58,483 nt of DNA, taken from Candidatus Sulfotelmatobacter sp. (GTDB taxonomy: Bacteria; Acidobacteriota; Terriglobia; Terriglobales; Acidobacteriaceae). Positions 10,927 to 38,050 of this stretch are shown in pieces. Every line of letters begins with the position of its first letter. Positions within the stretch are counted from its first letter, which is position 1. Position numbers and translations under genes: made by a program. Location: positions 1 through 58,483 of the forward strand of contig JASHQK010000509.1 in assembly GCA_030039195.1 (NCBI GenBank). The letters run 5' to 3'. Below the pieces are notes generated by a model, which was given only the letters and a program-made list of their open reading frames with translations, was not told where the DNA came from and ran no database searches.

Positions 10927-10947
10927 TCCTCCGACTTCGATTCGGCC

Positions 10948-14362: not shown

Positions 14363-15100
14363 CTACTTTGCTTTGAATGTGAAATCCGCAGTGGCGGGTT
14401 TTCCTTCCGCAACCGTCACCTTTTGCGTTTGAGTTCCGTACGTTTCGTGCCACGCCGTCAGCGTGTATGTTCCCGGAGGTACATTTTCGAGTGTGAAAGC
14501 ACCGTTACCATCGCTGACCCCGTTTGGCCCCTTCACAACCGCGATAAAGGCATGCATCCAGGGATGGACATTGCACTTTACGGGAATCATTTCTTCCGCG
14601 GACCAGGTCACGTCGATTGCTGGTGCACCGACAATCTGAGACTTGTTAAATGCGGTGTTGCCACCCCCTGGCTTTGGGTCGGGGTGAATATTGTGCATGG
14701 TCTTGTCGTCGTTCACAATCGACAGGTGCTGGCCCGGATTCACAGCCACAACATGTGGAACATATTGGCAGCCCTTCTGCGCGAAGGTTACCGGCTGGGA
14801 GGCCACCGGGATTGGAGCGCTCAAGCCTTGGGAAATGTAAACCACAACATTCGCCAGAGCGCCGTTCGCTCCGACGACAACGTTCTCGCCGGCTGGTGAC
14901 GGCCCAGTGTGAGTTTGGGCGCAGGAAGGGTCCTTCGACATATCGATCGGCTTCTGGTGAGGAGCTTGGCCATCTAACTTAACGGTCCCGGCGATCTTTC
15001 CGGTCGCCGCCGCCCCCACAGCCGGCGTCAACCGAAACAAACCCGCGGCTGCCACCAGCAACGCAAGTGACACAGCCGCAACTCTGTAGTGAGCTTTCAT
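14363..15100 (-). CDS. Secreted amicyanin-like type-1 copper (cupredoxin) protein with CarboxypepD_reg-like beta-sandwich
   Basis: Signal peptide. His in MHNIH plus KCNVHPWM (C-x2-H-x2-M, as in the amicyanin CTPHPFM loop). C-terminal GNGAFTLENVPPGTYTLTAWHE. Paralog of 27381-27983. Confidence 0.7.
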   Translation of the reverse strand: MKAHYRVAAVSLALLVAAAGLFRLTPAVGAAATGKIAGTVKLDGQAPHQKPIDMSKDPSCAQTHTGPSPAGENVVVGANGALANVVVYISQGLSAPIPVASQPVTFAQKGCQYVPHVVAVNPGQHLSIVNDDKTMHNIHPDPKPGGGNTAFNKSQIVGAPAIDVTWSAEEMIPVKCNVHPWMHAFIAVVKGPNGVSDGNGAFTLENVPPGTYTLTAWHETYGTQTQKVTVAEGKPATADFTFKAK

Positions 15101-20413: not shown

Positions 20414-21151
20414 TCAATTCTTCGAATAATGAGGCTCGCTATTTCGTGAGGGCGGATCGGCCACAGCGCGGATGTATGAGATCAGCGCCTGGATGTCGGT
20501 TTTGCTGAGGGTGTTTCCCCATGCCGGCATCAGGGCTGACTTATTGAGCGCCGGTCCACCGTAAGTGATGATCGCAGTGAGGTCCGCATCGGTCATTTTA
20601 TTCAGCGTGTCGCCCTCAGTGAATGGATGCGGCTTGACCTCCAGGTTGTCGTAGTTCGACACGCGCTCCACCGTTGATTCGGGATTATGGCAGCGATCAC
20701 AGTACTGATCGTTGAAACGGCGGCCGAGTGTCTGCTGATACCCGAGCGCGATTTCCTGGAGGGTGAGCTCGACTCTTTTATGGGATTTGTCGAAGGTAAA
20801 AGCGGTGAGCTGATAACGGCCTGCCATGCCCCCGAGAGACACGTTCGTAGTGAATTGGCCGCTGGAGTCGGTCAGTCCATACGCAGGATCGAATGTGACT
20901 CCGGGTGCGGCTTCGAGCTCGACCAGTGCCCCCGCGATTCCGTTGTTTTGATCGTCGTTCACTTGCACAACCACAGGCTGCGGCAACAGGCTGCCGGTCT
21001 GCGCCATCTGCTTGCCGCCGCTCGATTCCACGATGGCAGAGCCAAATACCGTAGGCTTGGGCAATGGCGCGGCGGCATTTTTATGCGAGCACGATGTCGC
21101 GAGAGAGGCCGCGATGATCGCGGCGAGCAAGCTCCAGGAGTAACGAGTCAT
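20414..21151 (-). CDS. Lipoprotein: Ig-like domain fused to monohaem class-I cytochrome c
   Basis: Start MTRYSW (ATGA overlap with the octahaem stop at 21148-21151). Lipobox LATSC. YCDRCH haem site and MPAW Met ligand region. Confidence 0.75.
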   Translation of the reverse strand: MTRYSWSLLAAIIAASLATSCSHKNAAAPLPKPTVFGSAIVESSGGKQMAQTGSLLPQPVVVQVNDDQNNGIAGALVELEAAPGVTFDPAYGLTDSSGQFTTNVSLGGMAGRYQLTAFTFDKSHKRVELTLQEIALGYQQTLGRRFNDQYCDRCHNPESTVERVSNYDNLEVKPHPFTEGDTLNKMTDADLTAIITYGGPALNKSALMPAWGNTLSKTDIQALISYIRAVADPPSRNSEPHYSKN

Positions 21152-23190
21152 TTCTTTCGAGCCCCCTGTTTTTCTCCTTTTTGGGAGATCAGGAATGCAG
21201 TGAGCGCGTGAGCGTCTTCCTCGCTCATGGCGCGGTTGGGTTCGATTGTGCCTGGCCTGAGAGCCTGGGGGTTTTTCATCCACGCGTAAATCCACGCCGC
21301 GGTGAGCCGCGAGCCGACATGGGTGAGCGTCGGGCCGATGTAGCCCTTGTCAGCCTTTGTGTCGACGATGTGGCAGCCTTGGCAGGAATATTTTCCATAG
21401 AAGAGCTGCTTGCCGAGTTCGATCTGCCCCTGCGAATAGCCGGTCAGCGGCATCGAGTCACGATCGATTGCGGGACTTTGATAAACGGTCATCATGTAAT
21501 CGGCGAGCTCGCTCGTCTCGGCGTCCGTCAGGTTGAAGCGCGGCATGCGCCGGATCAATGCCGGGCGCAACGTGTTCGGATTTTTCAGGAAATCCACGAG
21601 CCATTGCCGTTGCACCGAACTGCCCTCCCAGGTGAGATCAGGCGCCATGTCGCCGCCGTGGCCGTTGATGCGATGGCAACTGAAGCAGGCGAGATCGGTC
21701 ATGAGCTTGCCCGCTTTGCCGGCAGGCTGGTAATCCGACTCGGGCACAGCTGGAACTGTAAACGATGGCGGCAACGTCTTCGAGCGTTCATTCAACGCGA
21801 GCAGCGCGGTCGTGAGCGCATCAATTTGCGCCGGTGTGAAGGTGTACTGTGGCATCTTCAGTCCCGGCGAAAATGCCCGCGGCTCCTTGATCTTCCCGGC
21901 GATGTAATCCGGAAGCGTGTGCGGCATTCCGGGCAGGAAGAGCAGTTGCGTGATGGGCTTGCTCCCGATGCGGCTTAGTTCGGGAGCAAAGTTTTCCGGC
22001 TTCTTGATGCCCGCAATTTCGTGGCACGACGCGCAACCATAATCCGACACCAGGCGCTTGCCATGCGCGATCTGGTCGGGTGTTCCCTGATCGAGATGGA
22101 CATTGCTCAGGAGGTCGGAGTCACTCTTTGCCTCGAGAAATCCAGCCAGGGTCGCGACCTGAGCGTCGTTGAAGCGATAGTGCGGCATCGCGGTCCCGGG
22201 GTCATATGTGCGCGGATTCTTCAGCCAGCCCTGCAACCACTCTGGTTTCACCTTGCTGCCGATCCGCGTCAGTTCCGGACCCACGTCGCCGCCGACTACA
22301 TTTCCCGCTGCATTCTGCACGGCGTGGCAAGAAGCGCAGAAGGATTCTCCGTAAAGGCTAGGGCCGGCGGTCGGATCGGAGGACACTTTCGTAGAGACTG
22401 TCACCGAATCTCCCGTAACCGGTGTGCTGTTGGCGATTAGAAAGGACGACATGTCGCGAGCATCGCCGTCGCTGAGCTTGAAATTCGGCATCGTTGAGGT
22501 CGCCGCGTAAGCTTGCGGATCTTTCAACCAGGCATAAATCCATTCGCGCGTGGTCTTGTCGGCAATGTGCGAGAGCGACGGCGGATCGTCGGTTGCCTTC
22601 ATCGTCGTACCGTCAGGCAACTTCACGGAGTGGCAGTTCACGCAGCCATAACGGGCGAGCATGGTGCGTCCTTGATTCAGAACCGGAGTGCCCATCAGCG
22701 AATTGCGGTGACATTCCCCGCACGAAGATTCGATGTACTTTGCCGGAAGGATCGGCTGCTCCCACGCCAGGGTGCTGTTGTGCGCTTCGGAGACGGTGGT
22801 CGCGGCGCCCTGTCCACGATGACAAACCGTGCAGCCGAAGTCATCGAGCTTGTGCGGAATCACAGGATGCGGCCGGAACGGCTGCGTGGAAACGTCAGTG
22901 AGGCTGACTTCTTTCAGCGCGACGTGGCAACTGGTGCAGCGGTCGACCACACCCAGATCCGGCAGCCAGATCTGTTGGATTCCACCCTTGAAATGTCGCT
23001 GCAGCGTGTTCGCTTCGCTGCGGTTGCGAATCATCTTCAGATAGCCGTGCTGGTAATGGCGCCACTCGCTGAAATGATTCTTGGCCGGAGCGATGGCCAG
23101 CGAGACGAGGAAGATCAGGCTGACCACGCCAAAAGCGCGAACGCCGTCGCCGAAGAGCGTTTGCCAAAGCAACCCGAAGTTTGCTTTCAT
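21148..23190 (-). CDS. Membrane-anchored octahaem cytochrome c
   Basis: N-terminal TM. Eight CXXCH: CTSCH, CTVCH, CGECH, CVNCH, CASCH, CASCH, CFSCH, CQGCH. Confidence 0.85.
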   Translation of the reverse strand: MKANFGLLWQTLFGDGVRAFGVVSLIFLVSLAIAPAKNHFSEWRHYQHGYLKMIRNRSEANTLQRHFKGGIQQIWLPDLGVVDRCTSCHVALKEVSLTDVSTQPFRPHPVIPHKLDDFGCTVCHRGQGAATTVSEAHNSTLAWEQPILPAKYIESSCGECHRNSLMGTPVLNQGRTMLARYGCVNCHSVKLPDGTTMKATDDPPSLSHIADKTTREWIYAWLKDPQAYAATSTMPNFKLSDGDARDMSSFLIANSTPVTGDSVTVSTKVSSDPTAGPSLYGESFCASCHAVQNAAGNVVGGDVGPELTRIGSKVKPEWLQGWLKNPRTYDPGTAMPHYRFNDAQVATLAGFLEAKSDSDLLSNVHLDQGTPDQIAHGKRLVSDYGCASCHEIAGIKKPENFAPELSRIGSKPITQLLFLPGMPHTLPDYIAGKIKEPRAFSPGLKMPQYTFTPAQIDALTTALLALNERSKTLPPSFTVPAVPESDYQPAGKAGKLMTDLACFSCHRINGHGGDMAPDLTWEGSSVQRQWLVDFLKNPNTLRPALIRRMPRFNLTDAETSELADYMMTVYQSPAIDRDSMPLTGYSQGQIELGKQLFYGKYSCQGCHIVDTKADKGYIGPTLTHVGSRLTAAWIYAWMKNPQALRPGTIEPNRAMSEEDAHALTAFLISQKGEKQGARKK

Positions 23191-23209: not shown

Positions 23210-23917
23210 TTATGATCCCTGCCAAGGCCAGATCCAGGACCAGCCCGGCCCGCGGAAGAATGTGCCCACGGCGGTGAGCACGACCAACTCGAATAAGAAC
23301 CATGTCATGATCCAGTAAGAAAGCGGTCTTGTCGCCAGATAGCAGCGAAAGGCTGAAGAAGATCTCGGCGAACTCTGCGATGCGACGAGCATCAGCGCGG
23401 CCATGATGAGCGTCGGAACTAAGGCCACGATCACATGAAACCACCCGAGAAAAATCGAGAGCACGACCGAGACGAGATAGACCACGCGCAATCGCCGCTC
23501 GCGGTCTTTGAGAAAGAACCCATCCGCTTCGATATTGACCTTGAAGTAGGGAATAACGACTAATGCCATCACCACGAGTCCCGGGACTAATACGCCGGCG
23601 ACGACCGGCGGAAAGTAGTGCAGCATCTCCTGCAGGCCGAGAAAATACCAGGGCGCCTTTGCTGGATTGGGCGTATGCGAAGGATCGGCCAGGCCTTCCA
23701 GCGGAGCGTTGAACATAAGTGCGATCCAGACGAGCACTGTTGACAACGTCATGATTGCCACGGCCGCGCGGAACAGCACTTCGGGAAACGTCTGAACTTG
23801 CTCTTCGGTTTCCGCTTTCACCTGCGCCGAAGTGCGTCTGGTAACAAAAACTATGCGGCGCGGAGAGCGCTTTGCGTTGGAGTCGACGGCGGCGACGAAG
23901 TCTTTCGCATCAGCCAT
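23210..23917 (-). CDS. Cytochrome b C-terminal-domain protein (b6f subunit IV-like)
   Basis: [21 protein letters not shown] (PEWY-type motif). Start MADAKD at 23917 preceded by AAGGAGGG; 8-nt overlap with the cyt b stop. Confidence 0.8.
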
Positions 23918-24764
23918 GGTTAATCGCCCTCCTTGGTCCCAACTGGGGTGCCCCACTTCTCGCTACTTTTGCGGGAAGTGGAAGCACGTCTGATAGTTCG
24001 TGTTCGGTCTGCGCTCGCGCCACAGTCGGTTCGCTGGAATGGGAATACAGACCCCCATCTTTGCGAATGCGCCAGAAATGAATCGCAATGAAAAACATGG
24101 CCGTCAAGGGCAGGATCATGCAGTGCAACACATAGAAGCGCAGCAGCGCGTTTGCATTCACGGCATGGCCGCCCAGCAAAAGAAAGCGAATCTTGTCTCC
24201 CATCAGCGGAACCGCCGAGGCGATGTTCGAGCCGACCGTGATCGCCCAGTAGGCCAGTTGATCCCAGGGCAGCAGGTATCCCGTGTAACTGAGCAGCAGC
24301 GTGACAAGAAGAAGGACGACGCCGATCACCCAATTAAATTCGCGCGGAGTTCGATAAGCTCCGCGGTAAAAAACTTTGAACATGTGGGCGAAGACGAGAA
24401 ATACCATAGCGTGCGCGGACCAACGGTGCAGATTCCGGAGAAACAATCCCGAAGAGACGACGAATTGGAGATCTTTCGTGTCGGCATACGCCTGCGGAAC
24501 GGAGGGATGGTAATAAAGCATGAGCGGAATTCCAGTCGCGACCAGCAACAGGAAAGTGCCGAGAGTCAGGGTGCCGAGATACCAGGTCGCGCTGAAACCG
24601 AGCATGCGCGTGCGCACCTTGGTCGAGAACAGGTGCAGGAACACGTTCTGCTGGATCGCGAGCGAGCGCTTGAGCGTGCTCGATCCGGTGCCGCTGCGGA
24701 AGATCGAGCGCCAGACTCGGGTCTCGCGCAGATCGTCAAAATATTGGTCCACAGTTTTCGCCAT
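23910..24764 (-). CDS. Cytochrome b (b6-like N-terminal four-helix part)
   Basis: [28 protein letters not shown], conserved His pairs. Confidence 0.9.
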
Positions 24765-24765: not shown

Positions 24766-25272
24766 TCAGATCCTCACGAAGGAATCTCGCGCGAGCGGAG
24801 GCACGTCGGTTGAGCGATCCACGAGTAGATCGCCGTCGTCATTGAGCCAGATGCGTTTCCAGGGAAGCGGCTTGGGCGCGGGGCCTTCAATCTTGTCTCC
24901 CGGCTTGCGTCCGTCTTGCTGGAAAGCGAAAAACTTGCTGCCATGGCATGGGCACGCGATGATGCCTTGCTCAGGCTTCCACGCCGTCAGGCAGCCGAGA
25001 TGCGTGCAGACTGCGCTCAGAGAGAAGAAACCTTCTTGTGAGTGAATGATGTAAATACCCGTTGTGACGTCGAGCGTGACTGAGTCGAGCGGATAGCGAT
25101 CCGGCTTGCCCGCATTGACCACGGGCGACGGCTCGTACAGGACGTTGGGCTCAAGATACTGGTAAGCAAATGCCGCTGTGCCGGCGGCAGCGATGCCCAG
25201 AGAACCGAGTCCGAGTTTTGCGAAGAACTGCCGGCGGCTAACGTCGTCTGTCTTTTTTGTCTCTTCTGCCAT
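24766..25272 (-). CDS. Rieske 2Fe-2S subunit with Tat signal
   Basis: [15 protein letters not shown] twin-arginine motif. CTHLGC...CPCHGSKF cluster ligands. An alternative upstream start at 25317 is possible. Confidence 0.9.
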
Positions 25273-25335
25273 AAAAGCCTTGGGGCCCCACGGTAAATGT
25301 CGCGCGCTTGGCGACATTCAGGGTGGTGATCTGAT

Positions 25336-27303
25336 TTACTTTTGCAATCCCGCGCCGATCGATGCGACCGAGATCAAGCCGGTCGGCTCAGCGGGAAGCA
25401 GGTTGTACGACTCCATCGTGATGGTGCCAACTGGACAACGCATGGCACACAAGCCGCAGCGAATGCAGCGCGTTTCATCCTTTAACATCGCCGATCCTGT
25501 CACGATTCCGAGTTCGTCTGCGGCGACTTCGTCGAGCTCCACGCCGAAGCACTCCTGGTTCTCGCTAATGTGCTTGACGGTTTCCAGATCGAAGGCAATC
25601 CGATCCAGCGAAACGAGCTCAAGACATTTTTCCGGGCAAACATCGACGCAGCCGCCGCAGAGGATGCACATGCTGCCATCTTCCGGAACACCTTCGAAGA
25701 CCGTATTGACCCAGCAGTGCAGGCAGCGCTGTGCCTCGGCTATGGCCGACTTCGCGTCGTAACCGATCTCGACTTCGGTCACGCCGGTGCGGCGCTCCAG
25801 AGGAAGCATCCGAACCGGTTGACGGTTGAGATCGAGGTACCCGAGTGGCATGGCATGCCGTTTGAGTAGCTCGACTTCGATAACCGGCTCCGGATGCTTA
25901 CCGCCGCTCAGATACTCGTCAATTCCGACAGCAGCACGCTTGCCGTCGCCAACGCTGTCGATAATCAAGCGCGGTCCAAACACGCAATCACCGCCGGCGA
26001 AAATTCCGGGGGTGGAAGTCATCAGCGTTTGTGGATTAACGGCGATCAGGCCGCGCGGAGAAAGTTCGACTTTGTCTTCCGGAGTGAAAAAGTCGAGGCG
26101 CGGTGCTTGGCCGATCGCCATGATGATCGTGTCACAGTTGATCTGGCTCTCGCTACCTTCATAAAAAGCGGGATTGAAACGCCGGTTCTGGTCGAAGACC
26201 CACTTCGTCTTGAGAGTCTCGAGAGCGCTGACTTTTCCGTCCTTACCCACGATTCGCTTCGGCCCGAATCCGGGATAAATGATGATGCCCTCTTCTTCTG
26301 CTTCCTCGATTTCTTCGAGTGCGGCGGGCATTTCGTTGCGCCGTTCCAGGCAAACAAGATTCACCTCGCGCGCGCCCATGCGCAACGCGGAGAGCGAGAT
26401 GTCAACCATCTCCTTGGTCGCGACCGCGGAAACGTTCTCAGCCGAGGGCTCGACATCCTGAATTCCGCTCGCGTGCTGGCGAACGACTTCGCGAGCCGCG
26501 GAACGCGCAACGTCCATGGCAACATTGCCGCCGCCGATCACGATGACTTTCTTCCCGATCGTGAACTTGTAGCCGAGATTCACGTTCAGCAGAAAATCGA
26601 TTCCTTTATGCACTCCGTCGAGATCTACGCCAGGAATGCTGAGATCGCGGCTGCGGTGCGCGCCGACCGCGATCAGCACCGCGTCAAAGCCCTGCCGGCG
26701 CAATTCGGAGATGGTGAAGTCGCGGCCTGCAGCATGATTCAGCTTGAGCGTGATATCTCCGGTCTCGAGAATCTCTCGGACTTGCGCTTCCACGACATCT
26801 CTCGGCAAGCGATATTCGGGAATGCCGAGGTACAACATGCCGCCCGCTACGGGAGCGGCTTCAAAGAGCGTGACCGAATAGCCCATCAACGCCAGATCAT
26901 GCGCCGCTGAAAGCCCGACCGGACCCGCTCCCACGACTGCGACCTTATATGGAAGTTTCGCCTGTGAACGCCTTTCCGTGATGCTGATGGGATGCTTCGA
27001 TTCCGGCCCGAATTGCTCGGTCAGGAAGCGCTTGAGGGCGCGAATGGAGATCGGCTTGTCGATCTCTCCACGGCGGCAAGCGGTCTCGCATGGATGCGCA
27101 CACACTCGGCCGCAGATACTCGCCAGCGGATTGGGATCACGCGCCAGGCGATAGGCTTCCTCGAAGCGTCCTTCGGCAATCAGGCCAACATAGCGCCCGG
27201 CGTTGGTGTGCGCCGGGCAGGCCATCATGCAGGGGAAGTTCGTGTGCAACCAATCCGCGTCGACCTTCTTATCTCGAAACCGTTTCAGCATGGCGTCACT
27301 CAA
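25336..27303 (-). CDS. GltD-like (glutamate synthase small-subunit family) NAD(P)H-dependent FAD/FeS oxidoreductase with C-terminal 2x[4Fe-4S] ferredoxin domain
   Basis: N-terminal Cys clusters (CPAHT..., CGRVCAHPCETAC). Rossmann motifs VAVVGAGPVGLSAA and VIVIGGGNVAMD. C-terminal CILCGGCVDVCP and CIRCGLCAMRCP. Confidence 0.85.
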   Translation of the reverse strand: MSDAMLKRFRDKKVDADWLHTNFPCMMACPAHTNAGRYVGLIAEGRFEEAYRLARDPNPLASICGRVCAHPCETACRRGEIDKPISIRALKRFLTEQFGPESKHPISITERRSQAKLPYKVAVVGAGPVGLSAAHDLALMGYSVTLFEAAPVAGGMLYLGIPEYRLPRDVVEAQVREILETGDITLKLNHAAGRDFTISELRRQGFDAVLIAVGAHRSRDLSIPGVDLDGVHKGIDFLLNVNLGYKFTIGKKVIVIGGGNVAMDVARSAAREVVRQHASGIQDVEPSAENVSAVATKEMVDISLSALRMGAREVNLVCLERRNEMPAALEEIEEAEEEGIIIYPGFGPKRIVGKDGKVSALETLKTKWVFDQNRRFNPAFYEGSESQINCDTIIMAIGQAPRLDFFTPEDKVELSPRGLIAVNPQTLMTSTPGIFAGGDCVFGPRLIIDSVGDGKRAAVGIDEYLSGGKHPEPVIEVELLKRHAMPLGYLDLNRQPVRMLPLERRTGVTEVEIGYDAKSAIAEAQRCLHCWVNTVFEGVPEDGSMCILCGGCVDVCPEKCLELVSLDRIAFDLETVKHISENQECFGVELDEVAADELGIVTGSAMLKDETRCIRCGLCAMRCPVGTITMESYNLLPAEPTGLISVASIGAGLQK

Positions 27304-27330: not shown

Positions 27331-27372
27331 CTAGAAAGCAAAGAAGACGCGGGAGCGACTGCACGCTCCCGC
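27331..27372 (-). terminator. Intra-operon hairpin + U-rich tract after the cupredoxin gene (putative partial terminator/attenuator)
   Basis: Perfect 9-bp stem GCGGGAGCG-N6-CGCTCCCGC (27349-27372), followed on the minus strand by GTCTTCTTTGCTTTCT. Confidence 0.4.
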
Positions 27373-27380
27373 GCCGCGGA

Positions 27381-27983
27381 CTACTTCTTCAGAGTGAAAT
27401 CCGCTTTCGTGCTGCCCGAAACGGTTACCGGCTGCGATTGGTCTTTCGCACCTTCGTGCCATACGGTAACTGTGTAACTTCCGTCGGGGACATCTTTGAT
27501 CGTGTAATTGCCGCTATCGTCGGTCTCGGCAAAGTAGGGGGTGGGACTGACGATGATGTATCCCGACATATCAGGGTGCACATTGCAGAAAAGTGGCACG
27601 ACTCCGGCCTTGTCGAACGTGTAGGGACGCTTCTCGCCTTTCGGCCAGGTTCCGAGATTGTGGCCAGCTTTCTTGTCGTTACCGATCGCAGTCCAAAAGA
27701 CGTTGTGCTGCACATTGTCGCTGTTCAGGAACTCAACGGTCGTCCCTTGCTGCACCGCCATAATGTGCGGCACGAACAGCAGTCCCTTTTGATCCATTAC
27801 TGGGTGGTCCTTCGGAGCGGGGAAAGTCTTGCCGGCAATCGCATCTACATAGACGACCGACTTTCCCTTCATACCAGTAACCTTGCCCTCGATGTCTCCT
27901 GCCGATGCCGCGATGCATAATGCACTGATCATCAACATCACAACGCACGCATTTCGTCTCATTTGCCTTGTTCTCCTTTGCAT
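27381..27983 (-). CDS. Secreted amicyanin-like cupredoxin with CarboxypepD_reg-like domain (paralog of 14363-15100)
   Basis: Signal peptide; His in VQHNVFW plus FCNVHPDM (C-x2-H-x2-M); C-terminal DSGNYTIKDVPDGSYTVTVWHE. Confidence 0.7.
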   Translation of the reverse strand: MQRRTRQMRRNACVVMLMISALCIAASAGDIEGKVTGMKGKSVVYVDAIAGKTFPAPKDHPVMDQKGLLFVPHIMAVQQGTTVEFLNSDNVQHNVFWTAIGNDKKAGHNLGTWPKGEKRPYTFDKAGVVPLFCNVHPDMSGYIIVSPTPYFAETDDSGNYTIKDVPDGSYTVTVWHEGAKDQSQPVTVSGSTKADFTLKK

Positions 27984-28009: not shown

Positions 28010-29407
28010 CTAAAAAATGACCTTTGCGTCCAGGTAAATCGTGTTGTTAGAGCTCGCATTGCGGCCCGCGCTGTCGTAATTATTCTGGGCACCGTTGAAG
28101 CGCGTATACGCCGTGTACTGCGCGGCGAGCTGCAGATTCTGCCATGGCCAATAGGAAACGTTTGCGATCAAGCCTGCGCCTCTTGGATCGCCATTGAAAT
28201 TACCGGTCACCGGAGCGGACGGATAGAGAAGGAGGTCAGAAGTGCCAGTGGTATTGAACCAACCCAGCGTCCCCGTATATTTGTTTCCCAAGTGATATTC
28301 GGCATTGGCCATCACCGTGTTCAAACGGTGTGATCCTTGCGACACTAGACCCTGAAAAAGACTACTGAGCAGATCGTTGTTCTCCCGGATGTAGGTCGCC
28401 CGAAAGGATAGAACGTCTGTTCGAAACAGGGTCCTGTCGATCTGCGTGTCCACGCCCCAATCAGTGTAGGAATCCGTCGGAATGCTTGCGCCGGTTGTGG
28501 CGGTGATTTCGTTGGGAGTCGAACGCAGGTGCATGCCATAGGTACCGACTTCATACTGAGTCTTGCCTGTCAGTTCCTGCCATGCAAAACGCCAATAGGG
28601 CGCAACACCGCGAATGTTATGGGTGAAGCCAACTCCTGGATTCGGCTGCGGTCCACCCACATGCTCCGAGCGGTAAACCGCCGCATCCAGGTAGAAATGT
28701 GTGTCCCACATGGCGTAGCCGCCAAATCCCGCGACATCCTGGGCCAAAGGACCGTTAATAATCGCCGCGGCGTTAGGCGTGGGCGCAAAATCGCTAACGA
28801 TCCAAGGGAAACCCCATGCCGGAGTACTGTTCCACAGATCCTCTACACTGGGATTGTTGTTGAGGTCGAGGCCGTAAACCAGTTCTTTGCCTCCCCAAGT
28901 CGTCTTGTTGGCAGCCCGAATATCCGTGTTGTCACTGGTGAAATGATCGTCCCTGGTGTCATAGGTCACTTGGAGGAAGCTTCCGACGTGGCTTGTCCAT
29001 GCCCCGGATAGAAACAGCGATACGTCCTGAGGAAACTCGAAGTTCCCGTTCTGTGTGTTTGTTGAGGGAGTAGTGCTAGTATTTGGCACCGGGGACTTCA
29101 CCGATGTGAACGAAGTCTCAAGCATCACGGACAGCGGCAGCGATGCGAGCAGGTCGAGTGCGGCACGCTTTTTTCCGCCGTCGGCCGTTACGACCTTGGT
29201 CTCGTCGGCTCGATCCACATAACCCAGCAGCTTGAATCTGCGCCCGGCTGGATTGAGTTCCGGAGGAGCGTAGTGACAGCCGCTACATGGCAAACCTGTC
29301 TGTCGTGCATAGCTCGGCACCGCCTCAACCTTGGGCGGACTCATCACGCCCAACACAGGAACTGCAACAACCAGAAAAATCCCAAGTGTTTTCATTTGTA
29401 TCCTCAT
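28010..29407 (-). CDS. Outer-membrane beta-barrel protein with N-terminal monohaem domain (Cyc2-like fused cytochrome-porin)
   Basis: Signal peptide, then PSYARQTGLPCSGCHYAPPELNPAGRRFKLLGY (single CXXCH at residues 41-45, followed by P-x-L). About 400 aa of alternating beta-strand-like sequence rich in G/Y/T/N. C-terminal ...YLDAKVIF ends in the aromatic OMP signature. Confidence 0.6.
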   Translation of the reverse strand: MRIQMKTLGIFLVVAVPVLGVMSPPKVEAVPSYARQTGLPCSGCHYAPPELNPAGRRFKLLGYVDRADETKVVTADGGKKRAALDLLASLPLSVMLETSFTSVKSPVPNTSTTPSTNTQNGNFEFPQDVSLFLSGAWTSHVGSFLQVTYDTRDDHFTSDNTDIRAANKTTWGGKELVYGLDLNNNPSVEDLWNSTPAWGFPWIVSDFAPTPNAAAIINGPLAQDVAGFGGYAMWDTHFYLDAAVYRSEHVGGPQPNPGVGFTHNIRGVAPYWRFAWQELTGKTQYEVGTYGMHLRSTPNEITATTGASIPTDSYTDWGVDTQIDRTLFRTDVLSFRATYIRENNDLLSSLFQGLVSQGSHRLNTVMANAEYHLGNKYTGTLGWFNTTGTSDLLLYPSAPVTGNFNGDPRGAGLIANVSYWPWQNLQLAAQYTAYTRFNGAQNNYDSAGRNASSNNTIYLDAKVIF

Positions 29408-29476: not shown

Positions 29477-29492
29477 TGCGAACGCAGTTCCA
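29477..29492 (-). promoter_or_regulatory. Candidate sigma-54 (-24/-12) promoter for the cyc2-like operon
   Basis: Minus strand reads CTGGAAC-TGCGT-TCGCA, with GG and GC at the canonical 12-nt register. About 70 nt upstream of the ATG at 29407. Confidence 0.35.
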
Positions 29493-29758: not shown

Positions 29759-29913
29759 ATTTCATTTTCCCGCGACTTAGACAGTTCTCGCTATTTTCTG
29801 TCGCAAGTTCGCAACAACGAGACATAGGAAGGCAGCCGAGAAAAATTTCCGGCTACTAGTCGTTTTCTGATAGTGACTCCATCTTGGCAGCTCAATACAC
29901 TGGCGTTTTTGTC

Positions 29914-30378
29914 ATGAAGCTGACCTGCACAACGCCACGAAGTCCAGTTCACAAAGGAAAGCTCGCTTCACCTAGCGGAGTATTGAATTGCGGGTGGATC
30001 CTCGCGCTACTGCCAGTACTGCTGTTGGGAAGTGTGCAAGTGGCGGCCGTCGACAGTCGGGGCGTTGAACATCCGGGCAGTATTCATGCGGATGACAATT
30101 GCTCTTCCTGTCACGCGGACAAGTCCAGAGGCAAATCAGTGCACTCGGCCATGGCGCTTCGGTGCACAGTCTGCCATCTGGCGGAGACTCAAGGTGACAT
30201 GACTACTTTGAGTTTGTTCATGCCAAAAACAAAGATCTGCTTTGCCTGCCATGAACAATCCCTGTCCGTACGAGAGCACCGTCCCGTCGCCCGGGGATTG
30301 TGCCTGGACTGTCACGATGCACATAGCAGCAGTCGCCGCAAATTGTTACGACAGCCAACCGATGCTTCCCGTAACTAA
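29914..30378 (+). CDS. Tetrahaem c-type cytochrome (c3/NrfB-like), membrane-anchored or secreted
   Basis: Start MKLTC; hydrophobic segment WILALLPVLLLGSVQVAA; four CXXCH (CSSCH, CTVCH, CFACH, CLDCH). Confidence 0.8.
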   Translation: MKLTCTTPRSPVHKGKLASPSGVLNCGWILALLPVLLLGSVQVAAVDSRGVEHPGSIHADDNCSSCHADKSRGKSVHSAMALRCTVCHLAETQGDMTTLSLFMPKTKICFACHEQSLSVREHRPVARGLCLDCHDAHSSSRRKLLRQPTDASRN

Positions 30379-30972: not shown

Positions 30973-32331
30973 CTAGTCACAAAGACCGTACTCGCGCAGC
31001 TTCCTGTACAAATTCCGCTCGCTGATTCCAAGAATCTTAGCTGCATTTCCGCGATGCCCCTTGCTGGCTTCTAGCGCCATTCGAATGTGAGCGAGTTCCA
31101 CTTCCTGGAGTGTCAGCTGCCGGGAGGCTTCTGAAACGGCCGTTGCCGGTGTCGTCTTTGTATTACGCAGGGAAGCAGGAAGGTGATCGGGTAGAACCTG
31201 AGATCCTTCGCAAAGCACGAGAGCAGCTTCCACCACATGCAGGAGTTCGCGTACGTTGCCTGGCCAGGAGTGTTGTCGGAGCAACTGCAGGGCCGCTTCG
31301 CTAATCCTTTTGTTAGAGCCGAATCGCTCGTTGAGCATGGTCGCGAAGTGTTGGGCCAGAAGAGACACATCATCGCCTCTTGCGCGCAGAGGTGGTATCT
31401 CCACCGTGATGGTGCTGAGGCGGTAGAACAAGTCCTCACGAAAAAGGCCCTGCCGCACCAAGACCGATACATCTCGATTTGTGGCGGCCAGGATGCGGAC
31501 GTCCACTCGAATTTCCCGCGTACTACCGACGTGGCGGAACGTGGAGGTGTCGAGCACGCGCAACAACTTCGTCTGCGTCGCCGGGCTCACCTCTCCGATC
31601 TCATCAAGGAAGATTGTTCCGCCGTTAGCGACTTCGAACAGGCCGGGTTTGGCTCGATCCGCTCCGGTAAACGCACCTCGCTCATGGCCAAACAATTCGC
31701 TTTGCAGCAGGCTCTCCTGCAGCGCGGCGCATTCGACAACTACGAACGGCCTTGACCGGCGAGGACTGCGGGCGTGGATCAACTTGGCGACTCGTTCTTT
31801 GCCCACGCCTGTCTCGCCGATAATAAGCACGGTCGACTCACTTGGGGCAACGCGGTCGATCAGATTGAGCAGACGCCGGAACTCTGGGCTGTCGCCGACG
31901 AAAGAATTGCTCAGATCCGGCGGAGTCAGGCCGCGCTCGAGAATTTTTGTTCTCTGGCGCAGAGATCGCCGCTCGATCGCTCGTTGTATGCGAACCTGAA
32001 GTTCGTCCAGCGGACAAGGCTTCACCACGTAGTCGCAAGCGCCAATGCGAATCGATTCGATGGCCGTGTCGATAGAACCATGTCCGGTGAACATAATCAC
32101 CTCGGTGGAAGCCGCGGCCGCCAGAATGGCTTTTAGCGTCTCCAGCCCGCCTATACCAGGTAAGCGCAGGTCCAGCAGCACGACTTCGGGTTCCAGCACT
32201 TCCACTCGCTCGATCGCTTCCTCACCCGTGCTCGCCGTGGAGGTTTCGTAACCGAGTCGACTCAATTCATCCGCCATCACTTGCCGGAAGGCAGAATCGT
32301 CATCGACCACGAGGAGAGACGGTGGTTTCAT
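30973..32331 (-). CDS. Sigma-54-dependent response regulator (NtrC family: REC + AAA+ + Fis-type HTH)
   Basis: Receiver domain (LLVVDDD...DLRLPG), Walker A GETGVGKE, GAFTGA sigma-54 contact motif, C-terminal HTH (GNAAKILGISERNLYRKL). Confidence 0.92.
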   Translation of the reverse strand: MKPPSLLVVDDDSAFRQVMADELSRLGYETSTASTGEEAIERVEVLEPEVVLLDLRLPGIGGLETLKAILAAAASTEVIMFTGHGSIDTAIESIRIGACDYVVKPCPLDELQVRIQRAIERRSLRQRTKILERGLTPPDLSNSFVGDSPEFRRLLNLIDRVAPSESTVLIIGETGVGKERVAKLIHARSPRRSRPFVVVECAALQESLLQSELFGHERGAFTGADRAKPGLFEVANGGTIFLDEIGEVSPATQTKLLRVLDTSTFRHVGSTREIRVDVRILAATNRDVSVLVRQGLFREDLFYRLSTITVEIPPLRARGDDVSLLAQHFATMLNERFGSNKRISEAALQLLRQHSWPGNVRELLHVVEAALVLCEGSQVLPDHLPASLRNTKTTPATAVSEASRQLTLQEVELAHIRMALEASKGHRGNAAKILGISERNLYRKLREYGLCD

Positions 32332-34238
32332 CTCTCGACCTTGAGTTGAGGGCTGGTATTGATTGCCGGCATCACGACTGTGAACGTAGACCCTTTACCG
32401 AGAGCACTTTCGACTGCGATGGTGCCTCCCCAACTCCGGACTGCGTTGAGCGACAAGAACAGGCCGAGACCTGTGCCCCCTTGGCGAAGACTGAAAAAAG
32501 GTTCGAAGATCTTTTGCTGGTACTCTGGCGCGATCCCGCAGCCTTCGTCAGTGACGCGAATGTGGATTGCGTCGCCGCCTTGGGTGGCGACGATAACCTT
32601 GGCCCCGGCCTTTGACGCCTGAATCGCGTTGAGCAGGAGATTGACGAGCAGGTTCTGTAGTTCGGCCTCGTCCGCTCGGACATGTAGCGTTGTCGTGCAG
32701 AACTGCACCTCAACGGTCACAGAAGCGGTGCGAGCCGTAGGCTCGACCAGCCTCCGAGCAGCAGCGATCGCGGCATTGAGATCCACGATTTCACCACCCG
32801 ATCGCTGTCCGCGGGAAAGGCGGAGAAAATGTTGCGTAATTCCCCTGCAGCGTAGAATCTGCTCGCGCGCGATCGCCGCCTGTTCAAGAATTCGAGCCTG
32901 ATCCTTGGGACAGTCCTGGCCGCCTTGAGTCTCACGAAGGATGCCTTCTACGCACATTAGGGTCGTTGCCAGGGGCGTGTTCATCTCATGGGAAAAGCCA
33001 GAAGCAAGTACCCCTACCGATGCTAAGCGGTAGGACTCCGCGAGTTTTGCCTCGGCCGCACGTCGGTCGGAGATGTCTCGCCAGACTTCCACGACTTGGG
33101 TTAGACGACCAGAGGCGTCCAAAATGGGCGAAGCATGAATTTCCTCCCATGCCACAGTGTTGTTCCCCGCTTTGCGTTCGCAGATCCGAACCTGACGCGC
33201 ACCGGCTTTCAGACATGCGAGCGTGGGACAATCGGACAAGTTGCACGGGCCTGGCTCCAGTTTGTAGCAGCTGCAGCCCAGAACTTGCTCACGAGAACTG
33301 TTGGCGCGCAGCAAGAATGCGTCATTGGCTGCAATGATCTTTCGTTCCCCGTCGAGTACTACAATCCCGTCATCAATACTGTTGATCACAGTTTCCAGCC
33401 GCTCCCGCTGAGTGCGGACTTCTCCCACCAGGTGGGACACAGAATCCGCCATTTCATTGAACTCTTTCGCGAGCCAGGACAGCGTATCAGAGCCTTCCGT
33501 GGGTACGCGGCGTTCGAGATCGCCTTGAGAGATCAGGCGCGCCGTGTTCTCAAAACGCTGGAGGCGACGCAATACCGCCACGCGGATCACCAATGCGATT
33601 GCTCCGACAATAACGAAGGTCAGCGCTCCAGTTCCGGCCACCATCCAGCGCAGGTCGCGGGTCATCGCCTCCCTGATCTCTCCGGCGTTGTAATCCAGAA
33701 TGAGGACGCCATTGATCTTCTGCTGTGGACTGTGGCAGCGCTGGCATTCCTGGCGGTTACGAATTGGCACTACAGTTCGAAGAATGGTTCCACCTTTCGT
33801 CTCGATTACCCGGCTCGAGCCACGGCGTTCTGGCGGATCACGATGGCAGGCTTGGCATGTGGGAGAGTCGATCCTGAACTCATTCTGGGTGACTCCCGGC
33901 TTACTCGAATAACGCTCTGTGCCATTGCGATCAATCACGACGAGCTGCTCCACACGAGATTGCTTGCCGAAGCTCTCGATCATCTGCGCGATCAGAGTGC
34001 GGTCATTGCTCATCATCTGATGTTCGAGCGCGGTGCGGATCAATTCGCTTTCGGCAAGCGCGCTAGTGCGGGCCGTGTCGAGGAGGCTGTGAAAATGACG
34101 GGTGGAAAAAACGTAGGCGGCAACTGTACAGGCTACTACCACCGCCACCGTGACACCGAGCGCGAGGCCAACGGTCATGCTGGCAAAACGCAGCTTCATG
34201 ATGACGGCACCAGGTCGGCGGGATGATGGCACATGCAC
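32328..34238 (-). CDS. Sensor histidine kinase with periplasmic domain carrying two CXXCH motifs, HAMP, Cys-rich PAS, HisKA/HATPase
   Basis: Two TMs flank a ~140-aa loop containing CQACH and CQRCH. PAS has GCSCYKLEPGPCNLSDCPTLAC. H-box FSHEMNTP. ATGA overlap with the response regulator gene. Confidence 0.9.
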   Translation of the reverse strand: MHVPSSRRPGAVIMKLRFASMTVGLALGVTVAVVVACTVAAYVFSTRHFHSLLDTARTSALAESELIRTALEHQMMSNDRTLIAQMIESFGKQSRVEQLVVIDRNGTERYSSKPGVTQNEFRIDSPTCQACHRDPPERRGSSRVIETKGGTILRTVVPIRNRQECQRCHSPQQKINGVLILDYNAGEIREAMTRDLRWMVAGTGALTFVIVGAIALVIRVAVLRRLQRFENTARLISQGDLERRVPTEGSDTLSWLAKEFNEMADSVSHLVGEVRTQRERLETVINSIDDGIVVLDGERKIIAANDAFLLRANSSREQVLGCSCYKLEPGPCNLSDCPTLACLKAGARQVRICERKAGNNTVAWEEIHASPILDASGRLTQVVEVWRDISDRRAAEAKLAESYRLASVGVLASGFSHEMNTPLATTLMCVEGILRETQGGQDCPKDQARILEQAAIAREQILRCRGITQHFLRLSRGQRSGGEIVDLNAAIAAARRLVEPTARTASVTVEVQFCTTTLHVRADEAELQNLLVNLLLNAIQASKAGAKVIVATQGGDAIHIRVTDEGCGIAPEYQQKIFEPFFSLRQGGTGLGLFLSLNAVRSWGGTIAVESALGKGSTFTVVMPAINTSPQLKVER

Positions 34239-35218: not shown

Positions 35219-35719
35219 ATGCAAACGGTAAGCGAGACAACCCCCTCCGGCAGCAAACAACAAGGTGAACGCCTCGACCATTTCAACAGTACACGCCGCC
35301 GCGTCATTGAGTATTTTCTCGGTGGTGGCTTGTTGGCTTCGTTCGTTTCATTTCTCTACCCGGTGTTGCGCTACCTCATACCTCCTGCGGTAGCTGATCT
35401 TGGCGGTGACGAAATCGTCGCCGCCAAGATCGGCGAGCTAAAGCCGAATTCCGGCAAGATATTCCGATTCGGCAACCATCCTGGCTTGTTGATCCTAAAC
35501 AGCGATGGTACCTATCGTGCACTTTCCGCTACTTGTACCCACCTTGGCTGCACCGTGCAGTATCGCGCCGATCTTCGCCAGATCTGGTGTGCCTGCCACA
35601 ACGGAATCTACGATCTGAACGGTCGCAATGTTTCCGGTCCTCCGCCCAGACCGCTGGATGTGTTCGATGTCCACGCGCGCGGAGATGAGATTGTCGTCAG
35701 CAGAAAGCGGGAGGCGTGA
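35219..35719 (+). CDS. Rieske 2Fe-2S subunit (b6f/PetC-like)
   Basis: N-terminal TM; [10 protein letters not shown]...CACHNGIYD. Confidence 0.9.
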
Positions 35720-36801
35720 ATATGTTCGCTACCCTCCGTCACTGGCTCGACGAGCGGTTTGATTGGGATGACCTGACCGCTCCGCTTCGCCATAAGACAG
35801 TCCCCTCTCATCGCCTGTCATATTGGTATTTCCTCGGGGGCATTACGCTTTTCCTTTTCGGGATTCAGGTGGCGACCGGCATCTTGTTGCTGCTCTACTA
35901 CCGGCCCGGGGCAAACGAAGCGTTTGAGAGCGTGCAGTACATCATGACCCGGGTGCAATTTGGCTGGCTGATCCGGTCCATCCATTCCTGGTCCGCGAAC
36001 CTAATGATCTTTACTGCCTTTGCGCATATGTTCAGCGTGTTGTTCCTGAAGGCCTACCGCAAACCGCGTGAGCTTACGTGGGTCAGCGGTGTACTCCTCC
36101 TGTTTCTTGTCATGGGATTCGGCTTCAGCGGCTATTTATTGCCGTGGAACACTTTGGCTTTTTTCGCCACAAAGGTCGGCACGGAAATCACCGGACAGGT
36201 TCCGATCATCGGCAAGCCCATAATGATCTTTCTTCGCGGCGGCGAAGAGGTGACAGGTGCAACACTGACAAGGTTCTTCGGATTCCATGTCGCGGTTCTT
36301 CCCGGCTTAGCGACTGTCTTGCTTATGCTGCACTTGTTACTGGTGCAGCGCCTGGGCATCAGTGTTCCCCCGAAACTTGAAGCGCAATGGAACGCGAATC
36401 CATCTGCGAAGAGCCAGATGCAATTCTTCCCCAACTTCTTGTTGCGGGAGATGATGGCTTGGTACGTTGCTCTGGCAATGCTGGGAGTGCTGGCAGCGGT
36501 ATTCCCATGGAACCTTGGCGTGAAAGCCGATCCGTTCGTACCTGCGCCAGCGGGAATCAAACCCGAATGGTACTTTCTCTTTATGTTTCAGACATTGAAG
36601 CTCATTCCTTCTAGGGTTTGGTTCGTGGATGGAGAAGTCTTGGGGGTTCTGGGCTTCGGTCTCGTGGGGCTCGCGTGGCTTGTGTTGCCCTTTTTCGAAA
36701 GTTTCTCCTCCTCACACACGAAACGCCGGATTACTCAATTTACAGTCTTTGCTTTCGCGTACGTCGCAGGCATGAGCGTTTATGGCTATCTTGCAAAATA
36801 G
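35716..36801 (+). CDS. Full-length (fused) cytochrome b
   Basis: 361 aa; [41 protein letters not shown]; ATGA-type overlap with the Rieske gene. Confidence 0.9.
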
Positions 36802-38050
36802 ATTGGGCGCGCTTGGCGCGCTCTGCGGTGTGGTTTTGGCCGGGCTTGTTTTATTTGTTGCATGTCTGGCCCACGCGCAAACCTCGAACTCCTGTCTGGA
36901 TTGTCATGCTGGTCTACCAGACCCTCTGGGAGTCAGCCAGGAAAAGTTTAGCCAGGACGTACACGCCCAGAAAGGGCTGACTTGTGTTAGCTGTCACGGC
37001 GGCGACCCAACCAGCGACGATCCGGACAAGGCCATGAACAAGAAAGCGGGGTGGAAGGGCAAGATCGAGCGCAAGCAGATCCCCGAGTTATGCGGAAGTT
37101 GTCATTCCGATCCCTATTACATCCGGCAGTTCAATCCAGGCTTACGAACTGACCAGCTCGACCAGTACCGTACCAGCGTGCATGGTAAACGTTTGGTTGC
37201 GGGAGACACAAAGGTAGCCGTGTGCATCGATTGCCATAGTGTGCATGACATAAGGGCTCCCAGCGATCCCCGCTCGACGGTGAATCCGGTCAATGTGGCG
37301 ACCACCTGCGCAGGCTGCCATGCTAACGACGGTTATATGAAGGGATACTCCATTCCTACCGATCAATTCGCAAAATATGACGTGAGTGTACATCATGAGG
37401 CATTAGCTGTGCGGGGCGATTTGAGTGCACCAACCTGCTCGACGTGCCACGGGAATCATGGTGCAGTGCCTCCAGGAGTAGACAAAGTCCAGAATGTCTG
37501 CTCAAACTGTCACGCGTTCCAGGACCAAATGTACGAAAAGAGTTCTCACAAGAAAGCCTTTCAAGCTTCCTCCCTGCCAGGGTGTGTCGTGTGTCACAGC
37601 AACCATGCGATCACCTACCCCAGCGATGCAAAACTCGGAACCGGTCCAGAAGCGGTCTGCATGCGTTGTCACACTCCCGGCGACAAATGCGATCAAGCCC
37701 GAGCCCGATTGCAGGCGAAACTAATCAGCCTCGACTTGGCGATCAAGAAAGCGGACCAAGCGCTCGCCCTTGCGGAGTCTTCCGGCATGGAGGTAGGCGA
37801 AGCGCGCATGGCACAGGCTCAGGCCCGAGATTCGCTGACCAAGGCTCGAGTCACAATCCACAGTTTCCAGGAAAGCCTAGCGGATCAGGACATTCAGGCG
37901 GGGCTGAAAATTGCCGCAGAGGATCTGCAAGCCGGCCAGGCAGCCATGGTTGAGCGCAACCGTCGCCGTGCCGGCTTGGGGGTATCCCTCGTCGCAATAG
38001 GAATGGTACTGGCTGGGCTTCGGCTGTACATCAAGAAGATAGAGCGCTAG
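36782..38050 (+). CDS. Nonahaem cytochrome c with C-terminal coiled coil and TM anchor
   Basis: Signal peptide. Nine CXXCH (CLDCH, CVSCH, CGSCH, CIDCH, CAGCH, CSTCH, CSNCH, CVVCH, CMRCH). C-terminal [17 protein letters not shown]. Confidence 0.85.

Follow-up and report, generated by a model that had tools for sequence, protein, structure and literature searches.

A GltD/NfnB-like flavoprotein encoded with a b6-type Rieske/cytochrome b complex in Candidatus Sulfotelmatobacter, a probable link between NAD(H) and the b haems

The window analysed in this work is a 58,483-nucleotide stretch of DNA from Candidatus Sulfotelmatobacter sp. (phylum Acidobacteriota; assembly GCA_030039195.1, contig JASHQK010000509.1), in which a reverse-strand gene (25336..27303, -) codes for a large flavoprotein directly upstream of genes for a Rieske protein and a cytochrome b. 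From the analysis of this gene, its neighbours and its relatives, we propose that the flavoprotein is probably the subunit on the negative (N) side of a b6-type, menaquinol-oxidising Rieske/cytochrome b complex, in which bifurcation of the quinol electrons would reduce NAD+. The protein carries the corresponding cofactor motifs, it is homologous to the oxidoreductase subunit of the anaerobic ammonium-oxidising (anammox) type, and its gene linkage is conserved. We consider it very likely that the flavoprotein belongs to a complex linking NAD(H) to the b haems, and just under evenly likely that this complex runs in the forward direction, from quinol to NAD+. The complex is an acidobacterial member of an already known kind of Rieske/cytochrome b complex and not a new principle. 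Judging from the sequences, it would have three informative variant features, namely the absence of haem cn, a NAD(H)-type motif and different partners on the positive (P) side of the membrane.

Domain structure and cofactor motifs of the flavoprotein

The open reading frame (ORF) at 25336..27303 (-) comprises 655 codons when counted from a TTG start. The true start is probably the ATG at codon 5 (position 27291), since the resulting 651 residues match in length the 100%-identical database protein P0001 as well as most relatives. The initial annotation had described N-terminal Cys clusters, two Rossmann motifs and a C-terminal 2x[4Fe-4S] domain. All the motifs it quoted are present and the Pfam matches agree with this layout, consisting of Fer4_20 (23-98), Pyr_redox_2 (119-453) and two Fer4 domains (546-629). 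The dinucleotide motifs are VAVVGAGPVGLSAA at residues 121-134 and VIVIGGGNVAMD at 253-264, while the ferredoxin motifs CILCGGCVDVCP at 546-557 and CIRCGLCAMRCP at 613-624 both have the form CxxCxxCxxxCP; an RCLHC motif lies at 526-530. Comparison of 30 diverse members of the family returned 16 Cys residues that are invariant or nearly so (C25, C29, C64, C68, C72, C76, C527 and C530 in the window numbering, besides those of the two CxxCxxCxxxCP motifs), thus providing enough ligands for four [4Fe-4S] clusters. The spacing between the two ferredoxin motifs is unusually wide, 55-67 residues throughout the family. The protein is therefore described here as a FAD/NAD(P)-binding protein with four [4Fe-4S] clusters, a GltD/NfnB-like core and a C-terminal split 2x[4Fe-4S] ferredoxin domain. 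Its proposed cytoplasmic location agrees with a hydropathy scan, in which no membrane-spanning hydrophobic segment was found, N-terminus included (no dedicated signal-peptide predictor was run).

The best curated model was NF009410 "NAD(P)-binding protein", with 458 bits against a cut-off of 516, and database homologues are named "FAD-dependent oxidoreductase", "formate dehydrogenase (NADP+) beta subunit", "GltD-like" or "NADPH-dependent glutamate synthase beta subunit-like". Such names, together with the generic family resemblance, would fit a glutamate synthase small subunit (GltD), an identity to which we assign practically no probability. The scores fall far under the curated cut-offs (207 vs 447.7 for TIGR01317, 244 vs 483 for TIGR01318 and 314 vs 472 for TIGR01316), and this candidate was rejected. 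The flavoprotein has an extra C-terminal iron-sulfur (FeS) domain of 190 aa, and neither the window nor any related locus contains gltB. Nor did Pfam scans of the larger ORFs of the window, the longest of which (858 aa) encodes a Ser/Thr kinase, detect a glutamate-synthase large-subunit domain. A gltB-like partner, which the initial annotation had regarded as contrary to its reading, is thus missing from the window, as it had stated, and from the related loci as well.

Among solved structures, the sequence ranking was NfnA of the Bfu-type NfnABC (NfnB-like part), followed by StnC, NfnB, GltD and DPD. The matches included 9bov_A (2e-91) and 9n5u_A for NfnA, 8oh5_C for StnC, and 4ylf_B and 5jca_L for NfnB; E-values ranged from 2e-91 to 7e-73 for the NfnA/StnC/NfnB set and down to 4e-54 for the NfnA/NfnB/GltD set.

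In NfnB and DsrL, a YRR motif binds the 2'-phosphate of NADP(H) and sets the preference for this cofactor (PMC7596348). At the same position the window flavoprotein carries CLE (VCLERRNEMPA); therefore, by the DsrL rule, we infer that it uses NAD(H) rather than NADP(H). The form VCLES[RK]xEMPA is shared by every non-anammox relative with a detected motif and by two anammox-type loci, L105 and L119, and VYRR was seen only in L081-type flavoproteins among the sequences compared.

Composition of the Rieske/cytochrome b operon

On the reverse strand, the flavoprotein gene is followed in order by genes for a Rieske protein, a split cytochrome b6, subunit IV, an octahaem cytochrome c and a monohaem cytochrome c. 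The Rieske [2Fe-2S] protein (24766..25317, -) has a twin-arginine-translocation-like SRRQFF motif, a membrane anchor and the boxes CTHLGC and CPCHGSKF. The gap that separates its gene from that of the flavoprotein measures 18 nt, or 63 nt when the second ATG of the Rieske gene is used, as originally reported. The next gene (23910..24764, -) encodes a short b6-type cytochrome b with the four conserved haem His ligands, identified by alignment and by Pfam/NCBIfam, and it is followed by the gene of a membrane protein resembling subunit IV, the Qo motif of which is APWY (23210..23956, -). All the hallmarks of a b6-type Rieske/cytochrome b complex were hence found, i.e., the CxHxGC and CxCHGS boxes, the four haem His and PxWY in subunit IV. 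The octahaem cytochrome c (21148..23190, -) is membrane-anchored by an N-terminal transmembrane helix and contains eight CxxCH motifs. The monohaem cytochrome c (20414..21295, -), probably a lipoprotein, has a Big_1 domain and a probable ATG start near 21151.

According to Kao and Hunte, APWY cytochromes b go with Rieske proteins of predicted mid-to-high potential. A published acidobacterial study treats the Rieske/cytochrome b complex of Sulfotelmatobacter metagenome-assembled genomes (MAGs) as an ordinary "two component cytochrome bc1 complex".

Homology with anammox-type complexes

The solved structures closest to the window Rieske protein were 9rk4 (3e-20) and 9rk3 (2e-16), with b6f PetC at about 1e-12. 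Both are Kuenenia Rieske structures of Hauser et al. (PMC12954380); by the Tyr/Ser and Phe/Ser pairs given in that paper, 9rk4 (CPCHGSKY) corresponds to Kuste4569 and 9rk3 (CPCHGSGF) to Kustd1480. The CPCHGSKF box of the window protein has the Ser/Phe combination of Kustd1480, the potential of which was measured at +335 mV (PMC12954380). The oxidoreductase subunits of Kuenenia are Kuste4570, within Kuste4569-4574, and Kustd1483, within Kustd1480-1485; in the anammox complexes this subunit co-migrates and the Rieske potentials exceed +300 mV, fitting bifurcation to NAD(P)+ (PMC12954380).

As stand-ins for the Kuenenia sequences we used 65 anammox-type metagenome loci fetched with the 9rk4 sequence. 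In the loci employed for the flavoprotein comparison, the Rieske protein is 67-83% identical to Kuste4569 (9rk4). The window flavoprotein aligned with the flavoproteins of these loci over its full length (query residues 14-639, 35-44% identity), scoring 481 bits with L105 (43%), 457 bits with L119 (41%) and 338 bits with L081 (35%), to be compared with 310 bits for NfnA, 249 for NfnB and 187 for GltD. The cytochromes b6 of the window and of the anammox-type loci are about 50% identical. The likeness to the anammox bc-associated subunit, pointed out in the initial annotation, thus proved to be a full-length homology.

Conservation of the linkage between flavoprotein and Rieske genes

A scan of one genome per species returned at least 568 genomes holding a close relative of the flavoprotein. 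The locus counts given in this work refer to the best 80 of these genomes, whose flavoproteins are 87-94% identical to that of the window; almost all are labelled as Terriglobia or other Acidobacteriota, chiefly 'Ca. Sulfotelmatobacter' MAGs. The order flavoprotein, Rieske, cytochrome b6, subunit IV was present in all 80 loci, and the octahaem cytochrome c in 79 of them. On the upstream side, a cupredoxin gene occurred in 79 loci and a 465-aa ORF in 62. The flavoprotein (median identity 89.6%) and cytochrome b6 (90.3%) are the most conserved products of the operon, the other proteins ranging from 68 to 83%.

An exhaustive search of 50%-identity representatives yielded 4,113 family clusters at E<=1e-30, and several dozen of the best-scoring cluster representatives are full-length (560-700 aa) with the same motif pattern. 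Among the named members of these clusters, none was recognised as a cultured isolate. Distant relatives, 49-60% identical to the window protein, were taken from a profile search and belong to a second Acidobacteriia clade (L165), a Calditrichaeota MAG (L163) and an unclassified bacterial clade (L161, L162, L164, L166, L167). The gene context was looked up for six of them: the Rieske gene was the next gene in every case, followed by cytochrome b6, subunit IV and c-type cytochromes where the contig continues. Since the linkage is kept in all 80 related genomes and in 6/6 distant relatives, it is ancient and is not confined to anammox bacteria, nor is the arrangement due to chance. The statement of the initial annotation that such a subunit had been described only in anammox Planctomycetes has to be abandoned, as members of two Acidobacteriia clades, one MAG of Calditrichaeota and an unclassified bacterial clade also show the pairing. 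Dibrova et al. likewise speak of "many other cases" (PMC5600118).

The P-side neighbours of this core vary by lineage. They consist of a HAO-like octahaem protein in the anammox-type loci L081 and L105, of molybdopterin/4Fe-4S/NrfD proteins in L161 and L164, and of an ORF of 445-486 aa plus a cupredoxin in the window, L163 and L165. A conserved core is therefore joined to different redox modules in different lineages. In L161/L162 and L164, a module of molybdopterin oxidoreductase, 4Fe-4S protein and NrfD lies directly before the flavoprotein-Rieske-b6 operon, and several cytochromes c come after it.

These data also bear on whether the flavoprotein might be a soluble NAD(P)H:acceptor oxidoreductase of the NfnB/DsrL/SudA type, serving another partner such as DsrAB or ferredoxin and merely lying next to the Rieske genes. 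Its domain layout is the same as that of DsrL (PMC7596348), its best relatives of solved structure are the soluble bifurcating Nfn enzymes, and related Sulfotelmatobacter MAGs carry dsrAB and dsrL according to the published acidobacterial study. However, the dsrL of those MAGs sits with dsrC downstream of dsrAB, the window contains no dsr, nfnA/nfnBC or POR genes, and a chance neighbourhood would not explain a Rieske linkage kept across phyla down to 49% identity. We therefore regard a soluble enzyme with another partner as very unlikely.

Proposed electron path and its direction

According to the proposed mechanism, the C-terminal ferredoxin domain of the flavoprotein would dock on the N-side face of cytochrome b6/subunit IV, as that of DsrL contacts DsrAB (PMC7596348). 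Menaquinol would be oxidised at the Qo site and its electrons bifurcated. One electron would pass from the Rieske protein to the octahaem cytochrome c and then, through a cytochrome c or the cupredoxin, to a high-potential sink. The other would cross the membrane through haems bL and bH and reach NAD+ by way of the four FeS clusters and FAD, NAD+ taking the place of the quinone of the Qi site. Candidate sinks are encoded nearby, as the cupredoxin might deliver electrons to an aa3-type oxidase or, alternatively, a Cyc2-like protein might be involved, and an uptake hydrogenase with its own cytochrome b would be a candidate source of quinol. The forward direction is the one proposed by Kartal and colleagues for anammox bacteria, as summarised in PMC12954380.

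Several points weigh against this proposal. The physical association of the flavoprotein with the complex is deduced from synteny only. Even for anammox bacteria, the coupling of quinol oxidation to NAD(P)+ reduction is a hypothesis (PMC12954380), and biochemical work on such complexes is confined to these organisms. For a heterotroph, there would be no evident need of NADH made from quinol. A rough energetic estimate, which takes menaquinone at about -70 mV, NAD at -320 mV, the sink at about +300 mV and two charges driven against the proton-motive force, places the reaction near equilibrium, and therefore the direction could be reversed. The cytochrome b6 of the window has TWYLGT where anammox-type proteins have TWCMGG, and it accordingly lacks the Cys of the CxGG motif for haem cn; this Cys is also absent from the three other non-anammox b6 proteins checked (YYLGS, LGLGG and LYLGV). 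The AlphaFold2 models of the flavoprotein were of low confidence, with pLDDT values of 34 (single sequence) and 48 (33-sequence alignment), and the confident part of the latter is the Rossmann core only. Finally, the phylogeny of the GltD family suggested in the initial annotation was built as a neighbour-joining tree of 133 family representatives and turned out star-like and poorly resolved; in this tree, the clades of the window and of anammox bacteria did not come out as sisters. A Foldseek search with the flavoprotein model ranked NfnA, StnC, NfnB/Xfn, GltD and DPD in this order with TM-scores of about 0.3, merely mirroring the sequence search.

The same energetic estimate is compatible with the opposite direction. 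In that case the flavoprotein would be the entry module of a NAD(P)H dehydrogenase, passing electrons from NAD(P)H to FAD, the FeS clusters, haem bH and a quinone on the N side, with the cytochrome b acting as the anchor and the Rieske branch running an ordinary Q cycle. Dibrova et al. read such proteins as oxidoreductases anchored by a small cytochrome b (PMC5600118), DsrL-type enzymes are reversible in vitro (PMC7596348), and without haem cn the haem bH would directly face the N-side pocket. Nevertheless, this route would waste the energy conserved by complex I, as noted by Hauser et al. (PMC12954380), and related Sulfotelmatobacter MAGs already encode NDH-1 and NDH-2 (published acidobacterial study). 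It also leaves unexplained the constant pairing with a Rieske protein of the high-potential-type sequence class. The dehydrogenase direction is thus considered unlikely, although it is the most probable of the alternatives, and the reduction of NAD+ by quinol bifurcation is preferred in the following.

Upstream genes and a possible connection with extracellular iron

Upstream of the flavoprotein gene, at 27381..27983 (-), lies the gene of a secreted type-1 cupredoxin of 200 aa (copper ligands His92 and Cys133-x2-His136-x2-Met139) fused to a CarboxypepD_reg domain, which is a candidate periplasmic electron carrier. It is preceded by a gene (28010..29407, -) for a protein of 465 aa with a signal-like N-terminus, one CxxCH at residues 41-45, a beta-rich sequence and a C-terminal Phe, a candidate for a Cyc2-like fused monohaem cytochrome-porin. 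Its N-terminal motif A-[IV]-P-x-[FY]-A-R-[KQ]...C-x-x-C-H...G..F[KR]..G[YF] is kept in the corresponding ORFs of the Calditrichaeota locus (L163) and of the second Acidobacteriia clade (L165). No Pfam or NCBIfam match was obtained for this protein, and all its homologues are named "hypothetical protein"; a Cyc2/Cyc572-type identity, suggested by its architecture in comparison with published descriptions, may be taken as a lead.

Directly after the stop codon of the cupredoxin gene, a GC-rich 12-bp hairpin with a U-rich tail (27346..27375, -) lies between this gene and that of the flavoprotein. A hairpin of different sequence recurs at the same place in the relatives (L001-L080). It is probably a terminator or attenuator that sets a different expression of the carrier genes and of the membrane complex. 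Because the hairpin follows the cupredoxin stop codon, the Rieske/b transcription unit probably begins with the flavoprotein gene, or else attenuated read-through extends into this gene.

The two upstream genes suggest a further explanation, in which the complex is part of an extracellular iron or electron module. The Cyc2-like protein and the cupredoxin would join the high-potential branch to extracellular iron, so that Fe(III) would act as the sink pulling bifurcation towards NADH, or electrons from Fe(II) would be mixed in. The porin-cytochrome candidate precedes the operon in 62/80 and the cupredoxin in 79/80 Terriglobia loci, and the pair also occurs in the Calditrichaeota and second Acidobacteriia loci. 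By analogy, the porin candidate would have the Cyc2 hallmarks of a single N-terminal CxxCH followed by a barrel. In A. ferrooxidans the uphill branch runs from Cyc2 through rusticyanin to the bc1 complex, and the nearest curated family of the window cytochrome b6 is ExtP of Geobacter, whose operon lies beside outer-membrane conduit genes. On the other hand, the likeness of the porin candidate to Cyc2 is architectural, given that it has no family match and only hypothetical homologues; the conserved terminator-like hairpin splits the cupredoxin gene from the flavoprotein gene; a complex run in reverse would consume NADH; and other lineages combine the same core with HAO-like or molybdopterin modules. 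We consider the iron module rather improbable.

A broader arrangement would gather the Cyc2-like porin-cytochrome, the cupredoxin, the flavoprotein, Rieske/b6 and the octahaem cytochrome c in one respiratory device, by which abundant soil and peat Acidobacteria, and Calditrichota, would send part of the menaquinol electrons to NAD+ and the rest to a high-potential sink, either extracellular or linked to the oxidase (Fe(III), humics or O2). This is a doubtful proposal. If true, such a device would allow H2 and other donors at the level of quinol to supply NADH with no need of reverse complex I, and would bring haem-cn-independent, Q-based electron bifurcation into ordinary aerobic soils.

Other features of the window

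A paralogue of the cupredoxin, also secreted and carrying a CarboxypepD_reg domain, is encoded at 14363..15100 (-), with 32% identity (3e-23) and a common CNVHPxM copper loop. It heads the operon of an A-type haem-copper oxidase, including COX2 (13468..14277), COX1 (11649..13421), two COX3 (9910..11631) and haem O synthase (8726..9607). A membrane-bound uptake-type [NiFe] hydrogenase operon was observed at 52276..56803 (-), with small and large subunits, a cytochrome b, a HycI-like protease and a monohaem cytochrome c; this hydrogenase is a possible source of menaquinol.

A possible regulatory region precedes the Cyc2-like gene. About 70 nt upstream of this gene, a TGGAAC-N5-TTCGCA sequence (29477..29492, -) offers weak evidence of a sigma-54 promoter, and GTGAT..ATCAC inverted repeats precede it at about 29560-29760. 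Over the window as a whole the sigma-54 consensus shows no enrichment, with 44 matches counted against 33 expected. Upstream, a two-component system of sigma-54 type is encoded on the same strand, comprising a HAMP/PAS histidine kinase (32328..34238, -) and a NtrC-type response regulator (30973..32331, -). A HTH_8 gene also lies upstream in the Calditrichaeota locus L163. The opposite strand carries, between the genes of the two-component system and that of the Cyc2-like protein, a gene for a small multihaem cytochrome c of the c7 or paired-CXXCH type (29884..30378, +).

A second Rieske/cytochrome b cluster, devoid of a flavoprotein gene, occupies 35219..38050 (+) and encodes a Rieske protein of 166 aa, a long fused cytochrome b of 361 aa with a PEWY motif and a multihaem cytochrome c of 422 aa. 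The organism thus has at least two different Rieske/cytochrome b complexes, with genes about 10 kb apart.

Implications

Among soil and peat Acidobacteriota, several hundred species-level genomes at least encode the same kind of complex, in strongly conserved form, and it is also present in other phyla; annotation names such as "formate dehydrogenase beta subunit" and "GltD-like" hide it. Quinol bifurcation to NAD(P)+ by Rieske/cytochrome b complexes is a hypothesis put forward for anammox bacteria, slow-growing organisms that lack genetic tools. The present loci provide a wider range of organisms in which the hypothesis of NAD(P)H formation from quinol can be tested. They would also represent an unrecognised branch of the respiratory chain in one of the most abundant soil phyla, possibly linked to H2 oxidation, oxygen respiration or iron cycling.

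Comparison with known systems

The closest known systems are the anammox complexes. The window and anammox subunits have in common a FAD/NAD(P) core of the GltD/NfnB type and four FeS clusters, among them those of the C-terminal ferredoxin domain, and both operons encode a Rieske protein, a short cytochrome b6, a subunit IV with PAKAPWYF (APWY) and a multihaem cytochrome c. They differ in gene order, as the flavoprotein gene comes before the Rieske gene in the window, while the usual order in the anammox-type loci is Rieske, flavoprotein, cytochrome b6, subunit IV and multihaem cytochrome c. The second ferredoxin motif is a canonical CxxCxxCxxxCP in the window protein and one residue shorter in the anammox type. 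At the NAD(P) site, the CLE of the window is shared with the L105/L119 type and YRR belongs to the L081 type. The window b6 lacks a 14-aa loop and the window subunit IV a C-terminal two-helix extension that are present in the anammox proteins. A HAO-like octahaem gene lies downstream in L081 and L105, as with Kuste4574; the window has none, and carries the Cyc2-like and cupredoxin genes upstream instead. The host here is a soil acidobacterium with an aa3-type oxidase, unlike the anammox hosts.

Haem cn lies on the anammox electron path modelled by Hauser et al. (PMC12954380). As the non-anammox b6 proteins without the haem-cn Cys keep the pairing with flavoprotein and Rieske protein, haem cn is dispensable for this pairing, and the CxGG motif is probably an anammox trait and not one of the whole kind.

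Two further arrangements were observed among the anammox-type loci. In L096, L098, L099, L117 and L120, a Kuste4569-like Rieske gene (70-79% identity of the product) is directly followed by cytochrome b6, with no flavoprotein gene between them; therefore, some anammox-type operons are without the flavoprotein subunit or have it encoded elsewhere. In L124, L126, L127 and L144, a homologue of the window cupredoxin (39-43% identity) is encoded on the opposite strand near a Kuste4569-like Rieske gene, and no flavoprotein or cytochrome b6 gene was found downstream within the fetched DNA.

Dibrova et al. (2017) state that short "subfamily G" cytochromes b are accompanied by large NAD(P)-binding FeS proteins in planctomycetes and, in their words, "in many other cases" (PMC5600118). 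These cytochromes share with the window the pairing of a short b6-like cytochrome with a large Cys-rich NAD(P)-binding oxidoreductase, in several phyla. The window b6 is likened to this subfamily by gene pairing and not by phylogeny. That study is comparative genomics only, and no acidobacterial case is mentioned in the passages searched (PMC5600118).

DsrL is a proven NAD(P)H:acceptor oxidoreductase, and enzymes of its type run in both directions in vitro (PMC7596348). Its domain order is identical to that of the window flavoprotein: the N-terminal two-cluster domain is followed by a FAD domain into which the NAD(P) domain is inserted, and some 100 aa of linker lead to the C-terminal 2x[4Fe-4S] domain (PMC7596348). 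In DsrL-1A the NAD domain is enlarged by an insertion of about 32 aa and YRR is lacking (PMC7596348); in the window protein, the alignment places an insertion at about residues 272-306. The partner of DsrL is DsrAB and that of the window flavoprotein would be a membrane Rieske/cytochrome b complex, the two proteins being likened by layout and not by sequence. Pfam scans of the window detected no dsr genes, and Rieske/cytochrome b neighbours were present in every locus examined; a linked DsrL was hence rejected on gene context.

NfnA (9bov, 9n5u), StnC (8oh5) and NfnB (4ylf_B, 5jca_L) share with the window flavoprotein its N-terminal cluster domain, its two Rossmann domains and the RCLxC motif. 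They are soluble, flavin-based bifurcating enzymes with other partner subunits, and their alignment with the window protein leaves out its C-terminal ferredoxin domain. NfnAB and NfnABC were rejected, no genes for NfnA (FNR-like) or NuoE/NuoF-like partners having been found in the window or in related loci.

For the membrane part of the complex, the closest curated NCBIfam families are those of ExtP, ExtQ and ExtS from the ext operon of Geobacter, involved in selenite/tellurite reduction, which match cytochrome b6, subunit IV and the N-terminal part of the octahaem protein. Among the matches listed, no flavoprotein family of the ext operon matched the window flavoprotein. All the Ext scores are under the family cut-offs, cytochrome b6 reaching 253 bits with ExtP against a cut-off of 290. 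Genes of an outer-membrane electron conduit adjoin the Geobacter ext operon, as the Cyc2-like candidate gene adjoins the operon of the window.

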